NCBI GenBank assembly: GCA_034660175.1 | Contig: JAYEIQ010000006.1 | Coordinates: forward strand, 10,201 to 74,200 | Source of the DNA: Patescibacteria group bacterium | GTDB lineage: Bacteria; Patescibacteriota; Minisyncoccia; Moranbacterales; DUUL01 | Direction of reading: 5' to 3' | DNA length: 64,000 bases | Shown: positions 27,302 to 38,072 of the stretch, piece by piece | Numbering within the stretch: the first letter of the stretch is position 1 | How the letters are laid out: each line of letters opens with the position of its first letter | Notes under the pieces: model-generated | What the model was told of the DNA's origin: nothing | What the model saw: only the letters and a program-made list of their open reading frames with translations | Database searches by the model: none | Program-made: the position numbers and the translations under genes

Positions 27302-30001
27302 ATGAAATTTATTGAAAAGCTTTTTGGCGGTGCTCAGAACAAGCAGTTGTCTCGAATGCAAGTTGTTGTTGAAAAGATCAATGAACTTGAACCACAGATT
27401 CAGAAGCTGACAGACGAGGAGCTCAAAGAAAAAACCAAACAATTCAAAAAGCAACTAGAAGAAAAGAGGGGCAAAGAAGCGAAGAAAGAACTGGACGAAA
27501 TTCTCCCAGAGGCCTTTGCCGTTGTTCGTGAAGGGGCTCATAGGGTTATCGGAGAGAGGGCCTACGATACTCAATTGATTGGTGCGATGGTTCTCCATCA
27601 TGGAAAAATCGCTGAAATGAAAACGGGGGAAGGAAAAACTTTAGCTGCTGTTTTGGCAGTCTATCTCAATGCTCTGACTGGGAATGGTGTTCACGTGATC
27701 ACTGTGAATGACTATCTTTCCAAACGTGATGCTAATTGGATGGGAAGTATCTATCACTTTCTTGGTTTGTCTACTGCTTGTTTGAATCACGATGTGTCAT
27801 ATCTGTATCAGCCAAAAGTTGTAGATTCCAACGAGGTTAGCGTTGAAATGGAAAATCTCAAAGCAATAACCAGAACAGAAGCATATAAGGCTGATGTTCT
27901 TTATGGAACAAATAACGAGTTTGGCTTTGATTATCTTCGTGACAATATGGCTCAGGACTTAGCTCATCTTGTTCAACGGCCTTTGAATTTTGCAATTGTT
28001 GATGAGGTTGACTCCATCTTGATTGATGAGGCAAGAACTCCACTTATCATTTCTGCTCCGGACACAGAGTCCACAAGGATGTATCAACAATTTGCTCGCT
28101 TGGTTCCAAGACTCAATGAAAATGGAGATTACAACGTTGATGAAAAGCTGAAAAGTGTTGTTTTGACAGCAGAAGGAATATCAAAAATGGAAAAATGGCT
28201 TGGAATTGGAAATATATATGAAACATCGAAAGTTACATATGTTCATCACTTGGAGCAGGCTCTCAAGGCTCATGTTCTGTTCACTCGCGACAGGGATTAT
28301 GTGATAAAAGAAGGGGAAGTTATTATTGTTGATGAGTTTACCGGTCGCATGATGGCAGGTCGTCGCTATAGCGAGGGATTGCATCAGGCAATTGAGGCAA
28401 AAGAGAATGTAAAAGTGCAACGAGAGTCTCGAACTTTGGCTACGATCACGTTCCAGAACTATTTCAGAATGTACGAGAAGCTCTCAGGCATGACTGGAAC
28501 AGCTCTAACCTCAGCTGAGGAGCTTTTCAGGGTGTATGAGCTTGAAGTGACAGAAATTCCAACTAACAAGTCCTTGGCAAGAAATGACATGCGAGACGTT
28601 GTGTATAAGTCGGAAAAGGGGAAATTCAGTGCAATTATTGACGAGATCATGCGACTGCACAACGAAGGACGGCCAGTTTTGGTAGGAACAATTGCAATTG
28701 AGAAGTCAGAATATTTATCGGCAGTTCTTGAAAAAAGGGGAATTGATCATGAAGTTCTCAATGCTAAAAATCATGAACGTGAAGCACAAATAATTTCTAA
28801 GGCAGGACAAAAGGGTGCGGTCACGATTGCAACAAATATGGCGGGAAGAGGAACTGATATCAAACTTGGTGATGGCGTGAGAGAGGTTGGAGGTTTGCAC
28901 ATTCTTGGGACTGAGCGTCACGAAGCCAGACGAATTGACAACCAGCTCAGGGGTCGTGCTGGGAGGCAAGGTGACCCCGGCTCATCACAATTTTTTGTTT
29001 CTTTGGAAGATGAGCTCATGAGACGATTTGGAGGAGATCGAATGGGTGGGATCATGAACAAACTTGGTCTGCCAGAGGATCAACCAATTGAAAACAAAAT
29101 GGTTTCTCGTTCCATTGAATCAGCTCAAGGAAAAATTGAGGGATTCAACTTTGACATGAGAAAAAGGATTTTGGAATATGACGATGTTATGAACAAACAG
29201 CGTGAAACTATATACAAGAAAAGAAAAGAAGCATTGGGAAAAGAAAGTGTTAAAGAAGACATTCGCGCAATGCTTGTTGATGAGGTGGAGTCAATAGTTG
29301 GAGCGCACACTGCGCTTGATGACGAAGATGAGTGGAACGTTGAAGAGATATCTGAAGAAGTTGAAACGCTTTGTGGTGAGGGTTCTTCTGATGTGCATAA
29401 AAAATTGATTGAGATGAAAAGATCAAAAGATTTTTCTCAGAGTGCAGAAAAGAAAAGTGCGATGATCGATCTTTTGGTTGGTCAGGTCAAAAAGATTTAT
29501 GGTGAAAAAGAAAAAGAGCTTGGTTCTGAGCAGCTTCGTGCTGTTGAGAAAAGTTTGATGCTCAGAACAACTGATAGTTTTTGGATGGATCATCTTGAGC
29601 AAATAGAGCGTGTTCGTGAGGGAATTGGTTTCCAGGGATATGGACAGCGTGATCCATTGATAATGTATAAGAAAGAGGCATTCAATTTGTTTCAAGGTCT
29701 TCTTGCAAACATCAATCGCACCATTATCAATGCTCTTTTCAAAATTCAGCTAGTGCCTGCTCGGGAAGCGTCAGCACGAACAAGGGTTCCCGAGAATGTT
29801 TCATACAGTGGAGGAGAGGAAGCTGGACAATTCGAAGGTGGTTCAGAGGTTAGTGATGGCGGTGCAGAAGCTTCTGCGGTAGAAAGGAAGGAAGCAGCTC
29901 CGACAGCACCAATTGTGAATGATGGCAAAAGTGTAGGTCGCAATGATCCTTGTCCGTGTGGAAGTGGGAAAAAGTACAAGAAGTGTCACGGAAAGAACTA
30001 G
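27302..30001 (+). CDS. secA: Preprotein translocase ATPase SecA
   Basis: MKTGEGKTLAAVLAVYLNALTG (Walker A), DEVDSILIDEARTPLIIS, and a C-terminal zinc motif CPCGSGKKYKKCHG. Confidence 0.95.
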   Translation: MKFIEKLFGGAQNKQLSRMQVVVEKINELEPQIQKLTDEELKEKTKQFKKQLEEKRGKEAKKELDEILPEAFAVVREGAHRVIGERAYDTQLIGAMVLHHGKIAEMKTGEGKTLAAVLAVYLNALTGNGVHVITVNDYLSKRDANWMGSIYHFLGLSTACLNHDVSYLYQPKVVDSNEVSVEMENLKAITRTEAYKADVLYGTNNEFGFDYLRDNMAQDLAHLVQRPLNFAIVDEVDSILIDEARTPLIISAPDTESTRMYQQFARLVPRLNENGDYNVDEKLKSVVLTAEGISKMEKWLGIGNIYETSKVTYVHHLEQALKAHVLFTRDRDYVIKEGEVIIVDEFTGRMMAGRRYSEGLHQAIEAKENVKVQRESRTLATITFQNYFRMYEKLSGMTGTALTSAEELFRVYELEVTEIPTNKSLARNDMRDVVYKSEKGKFSAIIDEIMRLHNEGRPVLVGTIAIEKSEYLSAVLEKRGIDHEVLNAKNHEREAQIISKAGQKGAVTIATNMAGRGTDIKLGDGVREVGGLHILGTERHEARRIDNQLRGRAGRQGDPGSSQFFVSLEDELMRRFGGDRMGGIMNKLGLPEDQPIENKMVSRSIESAQGKIEGFNFDMRKRILEYDDVMNKQRETIYKKRKEALGKESVKEDIRAMLVDEVESIVGAHTALDDEDEWNVEEISEEVETLCGEGSSDVHKKLIEMKRSKDFSQSAEKKSAMIDLLVGQVKKIYGEKEKELGSEQLRAVEKSLMLRTTDSFWMDHLEQIERVREGIGFQGYGQRDPLIMYKKEAFNLFQGLLANINRTIINALFKIQLVPAREASARTRVPENVSYSGGEEAGQFEGGSEVSDGGAEASAVERKEAAPTAPIVNDGKSVGRNDPCPCGSGKKYKKCHGKN

Positions 30002-30044
30002 ACATTAAGTGAAAATAAAGCAGTTTACTCGTTGACTATTCAAA

Positions 30045-30069
30045 ATCCAGGCGAAAGCCTGGATTTTTG
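30045..30069 (+). terminator. Rho-independent terminator after secA
   Basis: Hairpin TCCAGGC-GAAA-GCCTGGA followed by TTTTT. Confidence 0.6.
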
Positions 30070-30084
30070 GTTATTCCTTGGAAG

Positions 30085-30124
30085 ATAAAAAAAATAACGT
30101 ACCGTGGTACGTTATTTTTTTTAT
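30085..30124. terminator. Bidirectional terminator-like palindrome
   Basis: AATAACGTAC-CGTG-GTACGTTATT flanked by an A-run and a T-run. Confidence 0.5.
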
Positions 30125-30201
30125 TGCGCAAAGGGGGAAAGTTTTCAAATAAAAAAACATTACAAGGAGGTGGTAACTTCACATTTTATTCACAACAATA
30201 C

Positions 30202-30231
30202 TTGACAAGTTTTTCTCTGTTATGTTATAGT
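30202..30231 (+). promoter_or_regulatory. Putative rRNA operon promoter with -35 TTGACA, an 18-nt spacer and -10 TATAGT
   Basis: Read from the sequence about 520 nt upstream of the 23S 5' end. Confidence 0.4.
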
Positions 30232-30754
30232 TGTTTCTGACGTTCAATGAGGTCTGAAAAGGTTTCATTTGAACACACAGGGGATGGAAACAAATGAGGT
30301 ATATGTTGAATGTGGGAAGCCGCCATAAAAAATATCGATAAGATATACATGCAAAACAAAATCACAGTAACTGAATATTTTAGCGGCTGACAATCAACTC
30401 AGATTTGTTTCGACAAGGCCGCTTTGAGAGCGGTTTTTTGATTGAAAAGTTTTGCGCAAGAAGTTCCATAAAAATCAGGAAAAAGAAGATCTAGCAATAG
30501 GGGTTGGGCAGACGGGTCGTCGCATTGGCGATACTCGCGAAGACTGCTCCCTCTTTTGGTGGATCTTTTGCACAGTCGACAGGCCATTATGTTTTGTGAA
30601 AAAATGAAATGGAACCCTCGGCTCACAACGGATCTCATACTTTGATAATCAAATAGTAGTAGATACATATATCCCATATATATGTATCAAGTAGCAATAA
30701 CAATAGGTTTGCAAATAGTTAAAGTTCAATCTTTGCTATTTGCTAGTCATGTAG

Positions 30755-34054
<3,300 letters not shown>

Positions 34055-34361
34055 TCCAACTGACCATTTTCATTTAGGTTGATAGGAAAAATTGTATATT
34101 TAGCTAGAATATATTGCTTTGGAGTTCAAAAAATTCGCAAATGTATTTAATATACGTAGAGAATTTTTTAAACGAAAAGCATACAGACTGGTTGAAGATG
34201 CGGTTTTTAACATTAATCTAAATGTAAATGGTCAGTATACATGGCTTGGCATTTGAGTTTATACTTTTTTGTATAAGTTCTTCCGCCGGGCTAAATGACT
34301 AGCAATTAAGAAAGATTGAATGAGTTTATATCAAAAGTAAGCTCTTAATTAGATAATTTTG

Positions 34362-34860
34362 TCTTGGTGGTCCTTGTGGGATGGGTACACCTGTTTCTCC
34401 GCTCAAGAAGTGGCGGACAGATATCCCTATATCGTTTTCACTGTGCTTGGTGCTTTTTGCGGAGTGGGTACACCTGTCCTACTTCGTTTCGTCAAGACGG
34501 AACTACGAAGGATAAATTTCCATCCTTTACCACGTACCATTTAAATTCAGTGTCCTTGGTATCTTTTGCGAGAGGGGTACACCTGTTTCCATCCCGAACA
34601 CAGAAGTTAAGTCTCTCAGCGCCGATGGTAGTCGTAAGGCAAGAGTAGGTCGGTGCCAAGGACAGTGGATTTAAATATCAAATGGTATACTGTGGCGAAC
34701 ACAGAAGTTAAGCACTCTGGCGTTGATGGTAGTCACAAGGCAAGAGTAAGTCAATGCCAAGCACAATGCAAACAAGCTGAGCCGACTTGTCTTGCCAAAG
34801 CCAAAGCGAAAGCGTCGGCGGGTGGTAGCCTCAAGGCAAGAGTAGGTTGTCGCCAAGACA
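34362..34860 (+). repeat. Array of decayed partial 5S rRNA copies flanking the intact 5S. Two 5'-half-like copies lie upstream and two 3'-part copies lie downstream.
   Basis: 5'-half copies: CTTGGTGGTCCTTGTGGGATGGGTACACCTGTTTC at about 34362 and CTTGGTGCTTTTTGCGGAGTGGGTACACCTGTCC at about 34445. 3'-part copies: GCGAACACAGAAGTTAAGCACTCTGGCGTTGATGGTAGTCACAAGGCAAGAGTAAGTC at about 34693 and AGCGTCGGCGGGTGGTAGCCTCAAGGCAAGAGTAGGTTGTCGCCAAGACA at about 34811. Confidence 0.6.
34552..34665 (+). rRNA. rrf: 5S ribosomal RNA
   Basis: Contains ...CCTGTTTCCATCCCGAACACAGAAGTTAAG...GCCGATGGTAGT... with terminal helix TCCTTGG/CCAAGGA. Confidence 0.7.
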
Positions 34861-34946
34861 AAGTCATCCCATCAAGGGGTGTTTTTTTGATTTGAGCCAT
34901 TTTTAATGCTATAATTAAGTATTAAATAAAATGTTAAGAAAGTAGC

Positions 34947-35786
34947 ATGGCACAAAGAGATGTTAAGAGATTTTTTATACTGATTGTTTATTTTCTTTTT
35001 CTTTTTCTTTTCTTGTTTGTCGTTTATTTTTTGTTTAAGGCAGATCCATCTTGTTTTGATGGAAAGCACAATCAGGGAGAAGATGCAACTGATTGTGGTG
35101 GTCCATGTGTTCCTTGTTCTGAGATAATAAAGCTTCAGCCGATTAAAATCGAGTCTGTTGAATGGATTCATGATATAGAAAATAAATATGATGTGGTTGC
35201 AGAAGTGGTCAATCCAAATGATGTGTTTGGTGTTGTGATGGTTCGTTATCAGGCAAAAGTGAAAAATGGATCAGAGGGAATGTCTTATGAAAGCAAGTGG
35301 CAGGAGAGTTTTATTTTGCCAGGAGAGTCTAAATATCTTTTTGTTCAAGGGTTTGAAATAGATGCTTCGTTGGGTGATTCTGCGAACATTGAAGTTATAA
35401 TTGACGAAGACTCTGTTGTTTGGGAAAAATTTAAAAGCTATGAAGAACCAAACTTGATCATAAACAATCCAGGCTATGAAGAAGTTAGTGGGGGTGGTGT
35501 TGGTTTTGGAAGAGCATTTGGCACAATCATCAATCGAAGTAATGTTGATCTTGAGATTGTTCGAGTGAAAGTTTTGCTGTTTGATGACAAAGGCAAACTT
35601 CTAGCAGTCAATTCTCAGATCATGAATACATTGACAGCAGGAGAATTTAGGGATTATGTAATAAATTTCCCACACCGTTTTCCTGGATCTGTTTCCAATG
35701 TTAAGGCTTTTCCAGAGTCAAATCCTTTTGATTCAGAAAACTACATTCGTGTTTATGGAAGGCCAGATAAGTGGGACGAGAGGTAG
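34947..35786 (+). CDS. N-terminally anchored extracytoplasmic hypothetical protein
   Basis: A 279-aa ORF with an N-terminal transmembrane segment (ILIVYFLFLFLFLFVVYFLF) and a Cys cluster CGGPCVPC. Confidence 0.4.
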   Translation: MAQRDVKRFFILIVYFLFLFLFLFVVYFLFKADPSCFDGKHNQGEDATDCGGPCVPCSEIIKLQPIKIESVEWIHDIENKYDVVAEVVNPNDVFGVVMVRYQAKVKNGSEGMSYESKWQESFILPGESKYLFVQGFEIDASLGDSANIEVIIDEDSVVWEKFKSYEEPNLIINNPGYEEVSGGGVGFGRAFGTIINRSNVDLEIVRVKVLLFDDKGKLLAVNSQIMNTLTAGEFRDYVINFPHRFPGSVSNVKAFPESNPFDSENYIRVYGRPDKWDER

Positions 35787-35978
35787 ACTGATAAAACAAA
35801 AAGAATAGAAAAGAGGGAATTGTTGCAATAAAGATTTTTTGTTTGACATTTTTTCAAAGTGAGTGTATTCTTTGAGTATAAAAATACAAGTTGAAAACCG
35901 CCGAAAGGCTGTTTTTTAAACCAAGAAACTGTCTAAAAAGCTCATTTTCTGTTACAAATCTCAGGTTCCGGCTACAAA

Positions 35979-36004
35979 TTGTTCATTGCTTGTTGGTGTA
36001 TAAT
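35979..36004 (+). promoter_or_regulatory. Putative promoter for secE-nusG, with a -10 TATAAT carrying an upstream TG
   Basis: GGTGTATAAT at 35995-36004. No good -35 is present. Confidence 0.3.
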
Positions 36005-36097
36005 TATACAATCTCTTTGCAATTCACAATTTTTGCACGGAATCTGGAATTTTCACGACGAAAGAGGCTTATCAGACAGTTTCTGATCAAAAAAGAT

Positions 36098-36280
36098 ATG
36101 AATAAAGCAATATCGTTTGTAAAAGAGGCCTATGTGGAGCTCAAAAAAGTAAATTGGCCATCAAGAAAGCAAACAATCAACTATACTTTGGTTGTTATTG
36201 GTGCAAGCATCGCAGTTGCCGTTTTTCTTGGAATCCTTGATATGTTTTTTTCTTCAGTTATTGAGAAATTTTTGCTTTAA
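36098..36280 (+). CDS. secE: Preprotein translocase subunit SecE
   Basis: A 60-aa protein with one transmembrane helix (VVIGASIAVAVFLGILDMFF) and a KKVNWPS motif. It lies directly upstream of nusG. Confidence 0.7.
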   Translation: MNKAISFVKEAYVELKKVNWPSRKQTINYTLVVIGASIAVAVFLGILDMFFSSVIEKFLL

Positions 36281-36321
36281 GCCTTTTTTGAAGATAAGAG
36301 TAAAAAATAATTTTTTATGTC

Positions 36322-36867
36322 ATGGCAAAACAAACGCAACATCATGGACGAGCATGGTATGTGCTACACACATACAGTGGGTATGAAGACACTGTATCAC
36401 GTAATCTCAAGCAAAGAATAGAATCTATGGGCATGCAAGATAGAATTTTTGATGTGATGGTTCCCAAGGAGAAGAAGATAAAAATCAGAAATGGAAAACG
36501 CTATGTTGTCGAAGAAAGGATATTTCCTGGATATGTGCTGGTGAACATGGTTGTGACTGATGACTCTTGGTATGTGGTGAGAAACACTCCAAACGTGACG
36601 GGATTCATCGGAATGGGAACGACTCCAACTCCTGTTAATCCCAAAGAGATTGGCGGACTCAAGAAAAGAATGGGTGTTCAAGAGCCTAAATACAAAGTTG
36701 ATGTTGCTAAGAATGATTCAGTGAAGATTATTGACGGACCTTTCAAAAATTTCGAAGGTAAGGTTGACGAAGTTGATAACGAGAAAGGGAAAATTAAAGT
36801 GTTAGTGAGTATTTTTGGAAGAGAAACGCCTGTTGAGCTTGATTTTTTGCAAATCAAGAAAGTATAA
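36322..36867 (+). CDS. nusG: Transcription termination/antitermination factor NusG
   Basis: N-terminal NGN domain (WYVLHTYSGYE) and C-terminal KOW (VKIIDGPFKNFEGKV). Confidence 0.9.
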   Translation: MAKQTQHHGRAWYVLHTYSGYEDTVSRNLKQRIESMGMQDRIFDVMVPKEKKIKIRNGKRYVVEERIFPGYVLVNMVVTDDSWYVVRNTPNVTGFIGMGTTPTPVNPKEIGGLKKRMGVQEPKYKVDVAKNDSVKIIDGPFKNFEGKVDEVDNEKGKIKVLVSIFGRETPVELDFLQIKKV

Positions 36868-36905
36868 AGAAACATCAGTAATTCAAATTAGTTAATAACA
36901 AGAAA

Positions 36906-37331
36906 ATGGCAAAGAAAGTAGAAACTATTATCAAATTGCAAATCAGAGCAGGTCAGGCAAATCCAGCGCCTCCAGTTGGTCCTGCATTGGGTCAGCATGG
37001 CTTGAATATTCAAGATTTTTGCACAAGATTCAATGATGCAACAAAGGAACTGGGTGGAGATGTTATTCCTGTAGAAATTAGCGTGTATGATGACAGAAGT
37101 TTTGATTTTGTGCTCAAGTCACCACCAGCAGCAGAGCTATTGAAAAAAGCCGCAAACGTGAAAAAGGGCGCAGCAAACCCGCTGACCGATAAGGTGGGAA
37201 CAGTCACAAAGGAACAAGTCAGAGAAATTGCCGAAAAGAAAATGCAAGATCTGAATGCGAATGACACCAGTGCCGCGATGAAGATTGTTGGAGGAACTGC
37301 TCGATCAATGGGGATAAAGGTAGAAGAATAA
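36906..37331 (+). CDS. rplK: 50S ribosomal protein L11
   Basis: [26 protein letters not shown] is present. Confidence 0.95.
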
Positions 37332-37394
37332 TTAATATAATAACAAGTGGGAGCTCGAGCAATTTATTTGACCTAGCGCAGACCACTAAAGATA

Positions 37395-38072
37395 ATGAGA
37401 AGAGGAAAAAACTACAAGAAAGCGCAGGAATGTTTTGAGCAAATCAAAGCATATTCTGTCGATGAAGCACTTGAGATTTTGTCGAAGTTTCCAAAGACGA
37501 AATTTGACGAATCTGTCGAAGTTCACGTTAGGTTGAATCTTGATTCAAAAAAATCAGATCAGCAAGTAAGGGGAACTGTCAATCTTCCTCATGGAACTGG
37601 CAAAACACTTCGTATCGCTGCCTTTACTGAGACTCAGGTAACAGAAGCGAAAAAGGCTGGTGCCGATTTGGTTGGTGGTGAGGAACTGATTGAAAAAATT
37701 AGCAATGGTAAAGTGGATGATTTTGAAGTTGCTGTTGCAACTCCCGAAATGATGCCAAAGTTAGCGAAAGTTGCCAAAATTCTTGGACCGAAAGGCTTGA
37801 TGCCAAATCCAAAATCAGAAACAGTAGGACTGAAAATTACTCCAATGATAGAAGGTCTCAAAAAGGGAAAAGCAAGTTTCAAGAATGATAATGGCGGAAA
37901 TATTCATCAGGTTGTCGGAAAAAGATCATTTGATGTGGGGCAATTAAAAGAGAACACCGAAGCTTTTTTGAAGAGCATACGAAAGATGAAACCAACAGCA
38001 GTTAAAGGGAAACTAATAAAGAAAGTAACTGTTACTGCAACGATGAGTCCATCAATAACAGTTAAAGCTTAA
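37395..38072 (+). CDS. rplA: 50S ribosomal protein L1
   Basis: [13 protein letters not shown]...[11 protein letters not shown] is present. Confidence 0.95.

Follow-up and report, generated by a model that had tools for sequence, protein, structure and literature searches.

How a bacterial 5S ribosomal RNA (rRNA) gene comes to lie among fragments that resemble itself is the question raised by some 500 nucleotides (nt) of contig JAYEIQ010000006.1, from a Patescibacteria group bacterium (assembly GCA_034660175.1). The whole stretch analysed spans 64,000 nt and is referred to below as the window, in whose coordinates all positions are given unless a relative is named. The first-pass annotation of this DNA described a 5S gene embedded in four partial 5S copies, two resembling the 5' half upstream and two resembling the 3' portion downstream, and this description was borne out. 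The 5S genes of eight relatives, and no others, went into a nucleotide profile, which was run with nhmmer over all 64 kb on both strands. Exactly five matches had E < 1, namely the intact 5S gene and four pieces, A to D, whose E-values range from 1e-15 to 9e-5. All lie on the same strand as the intact gene, with the 5' parts (A and B) upstream and the 3' parts (C and D) downstream. The pieces, their order and their boundaries are as follows; "shell" denotes a 5S copy represented by one piece on each side of the intact gene.

34361-34400, + strand: piece A, the outer shell's 5' part, which runs from the 5' strand of helix I to loop C and has a mutated helix II strand (nhmmer 34362-34400, profile positions 3-44, E 9e-5)
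34401-34433, + strand: X1, filler between A and the middle unit, with a small hairpin TCCGC...GCGGA, taken for helix-III-like in the first-pass annotation, and no significant 5S similarity
34434-34479, + strand: 5' flank (34434-34442) and piece B (34443-34479), the 5' half of the middle shell 5S, ending in loop C (nhmmer 34445-34478, profile positions 3-36, E 7e-5)
34480-34525, + strand: X2, a 37-nt hairpin-forming insert (34480-34516; hairpins in the minimum free energy, or MFE, fold) followed by TTTCCATCC (34517-34525)
34526-34551, + strand: 5' arm of the intact unit's extended stem, which is of processing type (inverted repeat I2)
34552-34663, + strand: intact inner 5S rRNA gene (nhmmer E 9e-34; 35/35 model pairs)
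34664-34695, + strand: 3' arm of the extended stem of the intact unit (I2), ending exactly where the middle shell resumes at CGAAC
34696-34777, + strand: piece C (34696-34764), covering the middle shell from CGAAC in loop C through the 3' strand of helix I (its 3' two-thirds), and 3' flank (34765-34777) (nhmmer 34695-34763, profile positions 43-111, E 1e-15)
34778-34816, + strand: X3, filler in the outer shell, with a simple repeat of GCCAAA in 3.3 copies (34794-34813; Tandem Repeats Finder, TRF)
34817-34859, + strand: piece D, the 3' domain (helices V and IV and the helix I 3' strand) of the outer shell (nhmmer 34819-34858, profile positions 71-110, E 4e-6)

A repeat search returned the 5' segment in three copies (34354-34394, 34437-34477 and 34546-34586; 68-78% identity) and the 3' segment in three copies (34619-34667, 34720-34768 and 34816-34864; 67-82% identity). 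The 5' parts are spaced at 83 and 109 nt and the 3' parts at 101 and 96 nt, and a second exact copy of CGAACACAGAAGTTAAG was found at 34696-34712. A covariance model made from the same relatives as the nhmmer profile (R1) scored the intact gene at 126.8 bits, C at 30.5 bits (E 5e-7), D at 21.6 bits (E 8e-5) and A at 12 bits (E 0.016), and the lack of covariance-model similarity that would have refuted the first-pass description was thus not seen. With the general 5S model of Rfam (RF00001), the intact gene was the sole match at E <= 10 (34555-34661, model positions 1-120, 76.7 bits against a gathering score of 38), and A, B, C and D did not singly rise above the gathering threshold. Because the Rfam model is blind to the fragments, the locus passes as an ordinary 5S gene in annotation. 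The four pieces are not genes on their own and are recognised as 5S-derived by the lineage profile and model only. Three further candidates for 5S-related sequence or pairing were dropped. A degenerate helix-III-like segment that the first-pass annotation had attached to the first upstream copy (TCCGCTCAAGAAGTGGCGGA, within 34398-34433) was matched or exceeded in score by 1688 of 5000 shuffles, the 8-mer TTGTCTTG in X3 was not significant in a shuffle test, and the pairing of A with CGTCAAGACG at 34490-34499, proposed by the covariance model (E 0.016), would interleave with the much better supported pairing of B with C.

The layout of the five pieces is very probably nested, in the form A[B[5S]C]D. 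At the middle level, B represents 5S positions 1-37 and its last bases are ...CACCTGTCC (...CCATCC), and in 5S coordinates B and C abut within ~6 positions (profile 3-36 and 43-111). Between ...CCATCC and CGAAC, loop C is interrupted by 216 nt, which hold the intact 5S gene with its own processing stem. Joined to each other, B and C keep 31 of 32 pairs (helix I 11/12, II 7/7, III 5/5, V 5/5 and IV 3/3). With the insert removed, all five helices can form and the conserved loop E and loop A sequences are there, with GATGGTAG...AGAGTAAG as in L003, one of the loci of relatives with which the window was compared. B matches L003 at 31 of 34 positions (88% in a BLAST alignment with L003 3015-3056, including 7 nt of flank), and C is 86% identical to L003 3065-3144, including 11 nt of flank. 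At sites where the relatives L190 and L003 differ, the middle shell sides with L003 by 17:5. Its helix II (GGAGTG/CACTC) is that of L003 and is fully compensated with respect to the inner gene (AGAGG/TCTCT). The flanks, which also resemble those of L003, form a stem (inverted repeat I3, 34434-34450 with 34757-34773, 88% complementary). On this comparative evidence, B and C are best read as complementary halves of one L003-type 5S, which would be structurally whole apart from loop C. The middle shell lacks a contiguous conserved loop C (CCCAUCYCGAAC), which is split by 216 nt; what is left of it is at best the displaced 9-mer TTTCCATCC at 34517-34525, a possible remnant with the very sequence of 5S loop C (117 of 5000 shuffles reach its score).

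The outer level has a different affinity. According to the identity of the downstream protein, the window groups with L190 (87%) and then with L193 (74%), followed by L192 (68%), L194 and L195, with more distant loci beyond. A represents 5S positions 1 to ~42 and ends in loop C, and D represents ~71 to the end. A matches the L190 5S at 33 of 36 positions, with the upstream flank aligned as well (34238-34397 against L190 1159-1309, 84%), and D matches it at 35 of 39 positions (91% against L190 1346-1391), continuing into a common 3' flank. At sites where L190 and L195 differ, the outer shell agrees with L190 by 13:0. Both L190 and L193 possess one plain, uninterrupted 5S gene and no relic. Since the 5' flank, helix I type, 3' flank and terminator of the L190 and L193 5S genes align with A and D, the outer shell is the resident gene of the locus, interrupted in the lineage of the window. 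Its helix I has 11 of 11 pairs, and helices IV and V are kept; only 2 of 5 pairs remain in helix II, and the outer shell is thus decayed. A further inverted repeat (I1) joins 34333-34367 with 34853-34887, so that I1, I3 and I2 enclose one another. As a separate observation, the helix II strand of A carries three A-specific changes (GCGAGAGGGG to GTGGGATGGG; 34378-34394 against 34579-34595), and the changed strand GGGATGG is perfectly complementary to loop C of the intact 5S (CCATCCC), which may be chance or a useful pairing.

The inner gene is the sole bona fide 5S of the locus. It is of the short Parcubacteria type with a truncated helix IV and is nearest to the L195 type (91% overall, and 9:5 in favour of L195 where it and L190 have different bases). 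Its arms pair over 32 nt (I2, 34528-34559 with 34656-34687, 78% complementary), and stems like this one surround the single 5S gene in relatives. An 18-nt sequence, TCGGTGCCAAGGACAGTG, comprising the 3' end of the gene and the first bases of the 3' flank, is identical to a relic in L192, and the flanks of the unit resemble those of L195 and L192. These similarities point to a third sequence type, L195/L192-like and presumably of separate origin. The retention of a long closing stem like that of the relatives makes the intact gene the likely source of mature 5S, and it is probably the working 5S. The three levels of the nest thereby show three different affinities (L190, L003 and L195/L192), and the halves of each level agree. 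On an alignment of 11 sequences, the 5S structure was paired in 96.8% of cells and 14 pairs were changed on both sides, which 0 of 500 shuffles reached; as a control, sliding the partner columns by 1-3 positions left 30-44% paired.

Across related genomes, in a comparison proposed at the outset, relics were found in L207 and L192, and plain genes in L190 and L193. At L207, a distant relative in which the neighbouring protein is 40% identical, a 23S rRNA gene is followed by a 338-nt spacer and an intact 5S gene (464-585) with a 20-nt-arm stem, flanked on both sides by 5S relics. On the upstream side, TCTTGCGACAGGGCAA shares 81% identity with the 5' region of the intact gene, and the strand GCGGACAGGC pairs with GCCTGTCTGC downstream. 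The downstream side contains a relic starting at CGAAC (93% over 14 nt) and a copy of the 3' domain (682-728, 87%, E 4e-9), and this part is identical across contigs from three datasets, the two further ones agreeing wherever they cover the locus. Junctions compatible with the ...CCAUCC/CGAAC spot occur where the inner unit lies in the middle one, at L207 and possibly where the middle unit lies in the outer one. The L192 contig starts inside a degenerate 5S 3' domain (1-60), next to the same terminator and gene. This relic shares derived bases with D, as L192 1-22 matches 34806-34827 at 19 of 22 positions (CGAAAGCG..GGCGGGTGGTA), and the tract CGAAAGCG, which adjoins the GCCAAA repeat in X3, is common to both. 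The alignment as a whole scores 43 against a shuffle mean of 13.9; the relic is D-like at the 5' end, identical to the inner 5S of the window at the 3' end (18 nt) and has lost the invariant bases of loop E. In a scan of GTDB with NusG, which returned 80 Moranbacteria-type loci, a 5S gene lay upstream in three only, all plain. The GC-rich, hairpin-forming 5S flanks of L194 (150-520), in an AT-rich genome, had looked A- and D-like by eye and were dropped, having no support from the covariance model or from an nhmmer self-search. With respect to L207 itself, region 300-760 (also in L208 and L209) has GC-rich, extensively complementary flanks with extra small hairpins, such as CCGCCTTTGGCGG and CCGCCAAAGGCGG, and a gene caller placed a 147-aa open reading frame (ORF) on the opposite strand across the region.

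Entry of complete units into an existing 5S at or around loop C accounts for halves that abut and that agree in affinity and in flanks, and a nest is therefore preferred. Insertion of complete units, rather than duplication, is the probable origin. In the proposed course of events, the ancestral 5S would have been the outer shell (A and D), orthologous to the single 5S of the closest relatives. A complete L003-like unit, consisting of a gene with 10-30 nt of stem-forming sequence on each side, would have entered this gene in or near loop C, and a complete L195/L192-type unit would then have entered loop C of the middle unit, between ...CCATCC and CGAAC. Either unit may have been acquired laterally or from a paralog. 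Each insertion would have broken its host gene and at the same time supplied a working replacement. Most genomes of the candidate phyla radiation (CPR) carry a single 5S gene (Tsurumaki, 2022, PMC9297842). This genome probably does so too, and replacement would therefore be the only way in which such an insertion could survive. Today, the whole 500 nt would be transcribed as the tail of a 23S-5S transcript, the innermost gene would mature into 5S rRNA after release via its own stem, and the split shells would be co-transcribed and presumably functionless relics, with halves able to pair around the inner gene and with the outer one decaying. For this account in full, including the relic status of the shells, our confidence is only slightly above even.

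An origin by partial tandem duplication, akin to the degenerated tandem 5S array suggested in the first-pass annotation, would involve four events with one end inside the gene, leaving A, B, C and D to drift. Such events would naturally put 5' parts upstream and 3' parts downstream and would always keep one intact gene; the outermost copies would retain the ancestral flanks, as is seen against L190, and an internally deleted copy is one reading of D. Moreover, Firmicutes and Pseudoalteromonas have 5S remnants next to functional 5S genes (PMC7812874). However, duplication predicts the flank of the functional gene on each relic, and the flanks of A, B and the inner gene, as well as those of the inner gene, C and D, are unrelated beyond ~5 nt, though the bodies are 67-87% identical. 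The 5' flank of B and the 3' flank of C instead pair together and resemble those of L003. With duplications in the order outer, middle, inner, helix II would have to pass from the L190 type to the L003 type and back, and the close abutment of B and C in 5S coordinates also speaks against this origin. TRF detected no array with a 5S-sized period, and the pieces form cognate pairs around the intact gene. The tandem array is thus not supported, and we regard partial duplication as unlikely. Even less credit is due to an assembly chimera, in which the assembler would have stitched together 5S genes of co-occurring strains. The window does come from a metagenome-assembled genome, and its three units resemble the 5S of three lineages. 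Nevertheless, an independent Logan contig (run SRR26901924) is identical over 33915-37808 (3.9 kb), with the whole nest included. The longest exact repeat between copies is 17 nt, judged to be below usual assembler k-mers, and no junction falls in sequence that the copies share; the breaks in loop C are clean, and the filler between the halves is unique. For the comparable layout of L207, identical contigs in two additional datasets give partial confirmation. A chimera is extremely improbable.

Another explanation accepts the five pieces and holds that the shells are functional RNA, serving as a scaffold for processing or stability, as a two-piece split 5S in ribosomes or as an uncleaved, giant expanded 5S. 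The near-complete pairing (31/32) and intact loop E sequence of the middle shell would fit such a role, as would the outer shell, in which A and D differ from L190 at 7 of 75 positions (~9%), compared with ~16% for the adjacent alignment including the spacer, and all 11 pairs of helix I persist. A D-type relic also persists in L192. At L207, the flanks are GC-rich and extensively complementary; in one example, 421-433 with 647-659, helix II is wholly different in sequence from that of the intact gene and equally complementary. The region is strongly structured, folding well below shuffled controls (z -7.4 and -5.9), and the insert lies at a site that tolerates 5S expansion (PMC7812874). Conversely, the conserved loop C is partly displaced or lost in the middle shell, helix II of the outer shell has 2 of 5 pairs, and the L192 relic no longer has the invariant bases of loop E. 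A plain 5S suffices in the closest relatives, the middle shell can owe its pairing to an earlier period as a working gene, and known prokaryotic 5S expansions do not exceed 109 nt (PMC7812874). Functional shells are accordingly doubtful, albeit with some weight.

The energetics of pairing give a mixed picture. If paired, the shell halves would enclose the intact gene and its own 32-nt-arm stem. The duplex energy is -22.9 kcal/mol for A with D, compared with ~-11 kcal/mol for non-cognate partners, and -21.4 kcal/mol for B with C. The first-pass annotation had offered, as an alternative to an array, that the copies pair with the mature 5S region as processing stems. This holds in so far as B can pair with the 3' strand of the intact gene (-25.4 kcal/mol), but the halves are complementary mainly to each other. 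In the MFE fold, the A-D stem appears, as does the inner 5S together with its stem, but not the B-C pairing.

Several of these and other results count against the nest of inserted units. The duplex of B with the 3' strand of the inner gene is slightly better than that of B with C (helix I and flank only). A model constrained to the nested fold reaches -170.7 kcal/mol, compared with -190.8 kcal/mol for the MFE fold, which pairs A with sequence of the B region, and cofolding of B and C as two pieces does not give the 5S fold. Folding energy neither proves nor excludes the nested fold, and the structural claim, as proposed here, rests on the comparative evidence. The sequence has no clear target-site duplications, and no insertion mechanism was found. 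As the 5S is short, the assignments to lineages are based on 10-25 sites. Within the outer shell, the interior (34401-34433 and 34778-34816) is unrecognisable, and the exact insertion site is therefore uncertain. In an alternative reading by the covariance model, D is a self-contained copy with TGTCTTGCC (34788-34796) as its own helix I strand; that 8-mer match was not significant (532 of 5000 shuffles). The full three-level nest is seen in one genome only, and the contig of L192 breaks off within the relic. Paired 5' motifs (GGTACACCTGT N70-100 GGTACACCTGT) were sought in a metagenome scan, which returned 108 loci, all of which were unrelated tandem repeats without 5S. Finally, a D-type relic occurs in L192 but is absent from the closer relatives L190 and L193, so that either an older nest collapsed twice, as recombination between direct repeats could bring about, or relic-bearing DNA moved laterally.

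For the nest of inserted units, the closest counterparts are known 5S expansion segments and 5S remnants, with which it belongs, rather than forming a separate kind of system. Bacterial 5S expansions comprise 13-109 nt, loop C positions 34-37 are the least obstructed expansion sites, and lateral spread of 5S inserts has been proposed (Stepanov and Fox, PMC7812874). As in these expanded 5S rRNAs, a helix-closed module lies at a surface-exposed site, loop C, of a 5S core that is intact in other respects. Here, closure is provided by the 32-nt-arm stem. An insert of that class would not be complementary to the core; the present one is homologous to it and can therefore pair with it (B with the inner 3' strand, -25.4 kcal/mol). 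In contrast to the expanded 5S, the insert measures 216 nt (known maximum 109) and is itself a complete 5S with a processing stem, and the arrangement recurs at a second level; furthermore, the host loop C is partly displaced and the host is probably no longer a working gene. The 5S remnants of Firmicutes and Pseudoalteromonas lie downstream, each behind a terminator, and are thought to be untranscribed; recombination between remnants and genes has been discussed (PMC7812874). The present locus is like them in that truncated 5S-like sequence stands beside a functional 5S, and unlike them in that relics lie on both sides, as matching halves enclosing the gene, upstream of the only terminator. 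In CPR bacteria, rRNA genes are often interrupted, including 48% of 16S and 82% of 23S genes (Tsurumaki, 2022, PMC9297842; cf. Tsurumaki, 2024, PMC11270868), and insertion sequences and introns in CPR 16S and 23S rRNA genes were also described by Brown (2015), as cited in PMC9297842. Among 645 CPR 5S genes surveyed, none had an insert of at least 100 bp (PMC9297842). Like the 16S and 23S insertions, the nest is an interrupted rRNA gene in the same group of organisms; unlike them, it contains no intron, homing endonuclease or ORF, and what interrupts the gene is another copy of that gene.

In bacterial 23S rRNA, RNase III excises intervening sequences and the ends are not rejoined, so that the rRNA works in fragments. 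Such excision is not known for 5S. The nest resembles these sequences in that a helical insert lies at the tip of an rRNA helix and excision of the inner unit would leave two base-paired host pieces, with the difference that the excised piece here would be functional rRNA. Self-nested mobile elements are exemplified by twintrons and by transposons inserted into their own copies. As in these, a unit lies inside its own copy, repeatedly and in the same orientation; unlike in these, no transposase, integrase, intron core, transposon-type terminal repeats or target-site duplication was found, and mobility of a 5S unit would be conjectural. With regard to hallmarks of mobile elements, the 64-kb window contained no other copy of any part and no Rfam intron match, and the only ORFs across the nest are spurious. 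A bolder proposal is that the 5S unit (gene and closing stem) is a self-replacing cassette that enters the resident loop C between ...CCAUCC and CGAAC and moves between Patescibacteria lineages, and that the middle shell, still intact once the inner gene is cut out, could persist as a two-piece 5S, giving more than one kind of 5S per transcript; we consider this quite unlikely.

A layout of a gene within itself has not been reported before for 5S, and it suggests repeated replacement from within. If the nest is correctly read, it would be the first 5S insertion in CPR bacteria, where none of at least 100 bp was present in the 645 surveyed genes, and the largest prokaryotic 5S insert known, at 216 nt about twice the previous maximum of 109 nt. 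It would also provide a present-day, datable case of rRNA growth by insertion of a folded module into a loop, as invoked by models of ribosome evolution. The three affinities of the shells would point to lateral 5S replacement between related ultra-small bacteria, and the processing question would become how 5S can be freed when its precursor contains homologous strands that compete to pair. Consequences for annotation are more immediate. Standard 5S models see the inner gene only, and one 5S survey threw out oversized entries with "internal sequence duplication" (PMC7812874); surveys that drop such entries would miss loci of this kind. In addition, a spurious protein, U9O20_01335, has been called by NCBI across relics C and D.

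The setting of the nest is an rRNA transcription unit in a window with a G+C content of ~37%. The window has a Moranbacteria-like look, its NusG being matched best in Moranbacteria genomes, and the protein next to the nest is labelled 'Patescibacteria group bacterium' in a metagenome-assembled genome at NCBI. The order of genes is secA, the 23S rRNA gene (30757-34056), the 5S nest, a terminator-like hairpin, a gene for a 279-aa membrane protein, secE, nusG and the genes for L11 and L1. Two features delimit the unit:

30757-34056, + strand: 23S rRNA gene (Rfam RF02541, 2531.7 bits, full length), heading the transcription unit with the nest
34865-34888, + strand: intrinsic-terminator-like hairpin (34865-34881) and T-run, from a terminator and promoter scan, closing the rRNA unit

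A promoter-like site of the next gene follows directly after this terminator, and both elements are in the same place in L190 and L193. On the + strand from the 23S start onward, the scan found a sole terminator-like site, at 34865, past D. As no such site lies between the 23S gene and D, the nest is expected to form the tail end of that rRNA transcript.

Two ORFs, of 80 aa (34653-34895) and 94 aa (34364-34648), cross the 5S relics. The 80-aa ORF over C and D is the NCBI hypothetical protein U9O20_01335. A protein-database search with it, aimed at the same mis-called ORF in related nests, returned only the self-match among 5.8 billion proteins, and U9O20_01335 is a spurious gene call. Directly 3' of the 23S gene lies a 178-nt imperfect hairpin (34059-34236), which is missing in the closest relative, L190. 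Neither this hairpin nor the 5S units could be sustained as a mobile element, no further copies being present in the window or in the compared loci. The arms of the hairpin resemble both arms of the stem of the intact 5S (47 of 2000 and 19 of 2000 in shuffle tests), and it may have a common origin with the stem of the inner unit. Upstream of the 23S gene (27302-30757), the neighbour is secA, with no 16S gene between, and the rRNA genes are therefore unlinked in this genome. The 23S gene itself spans 3300 nt, compared with 2925 nt for the model, and thus contains ~375 nt of extra sequence, as is common in CPR bacteria.

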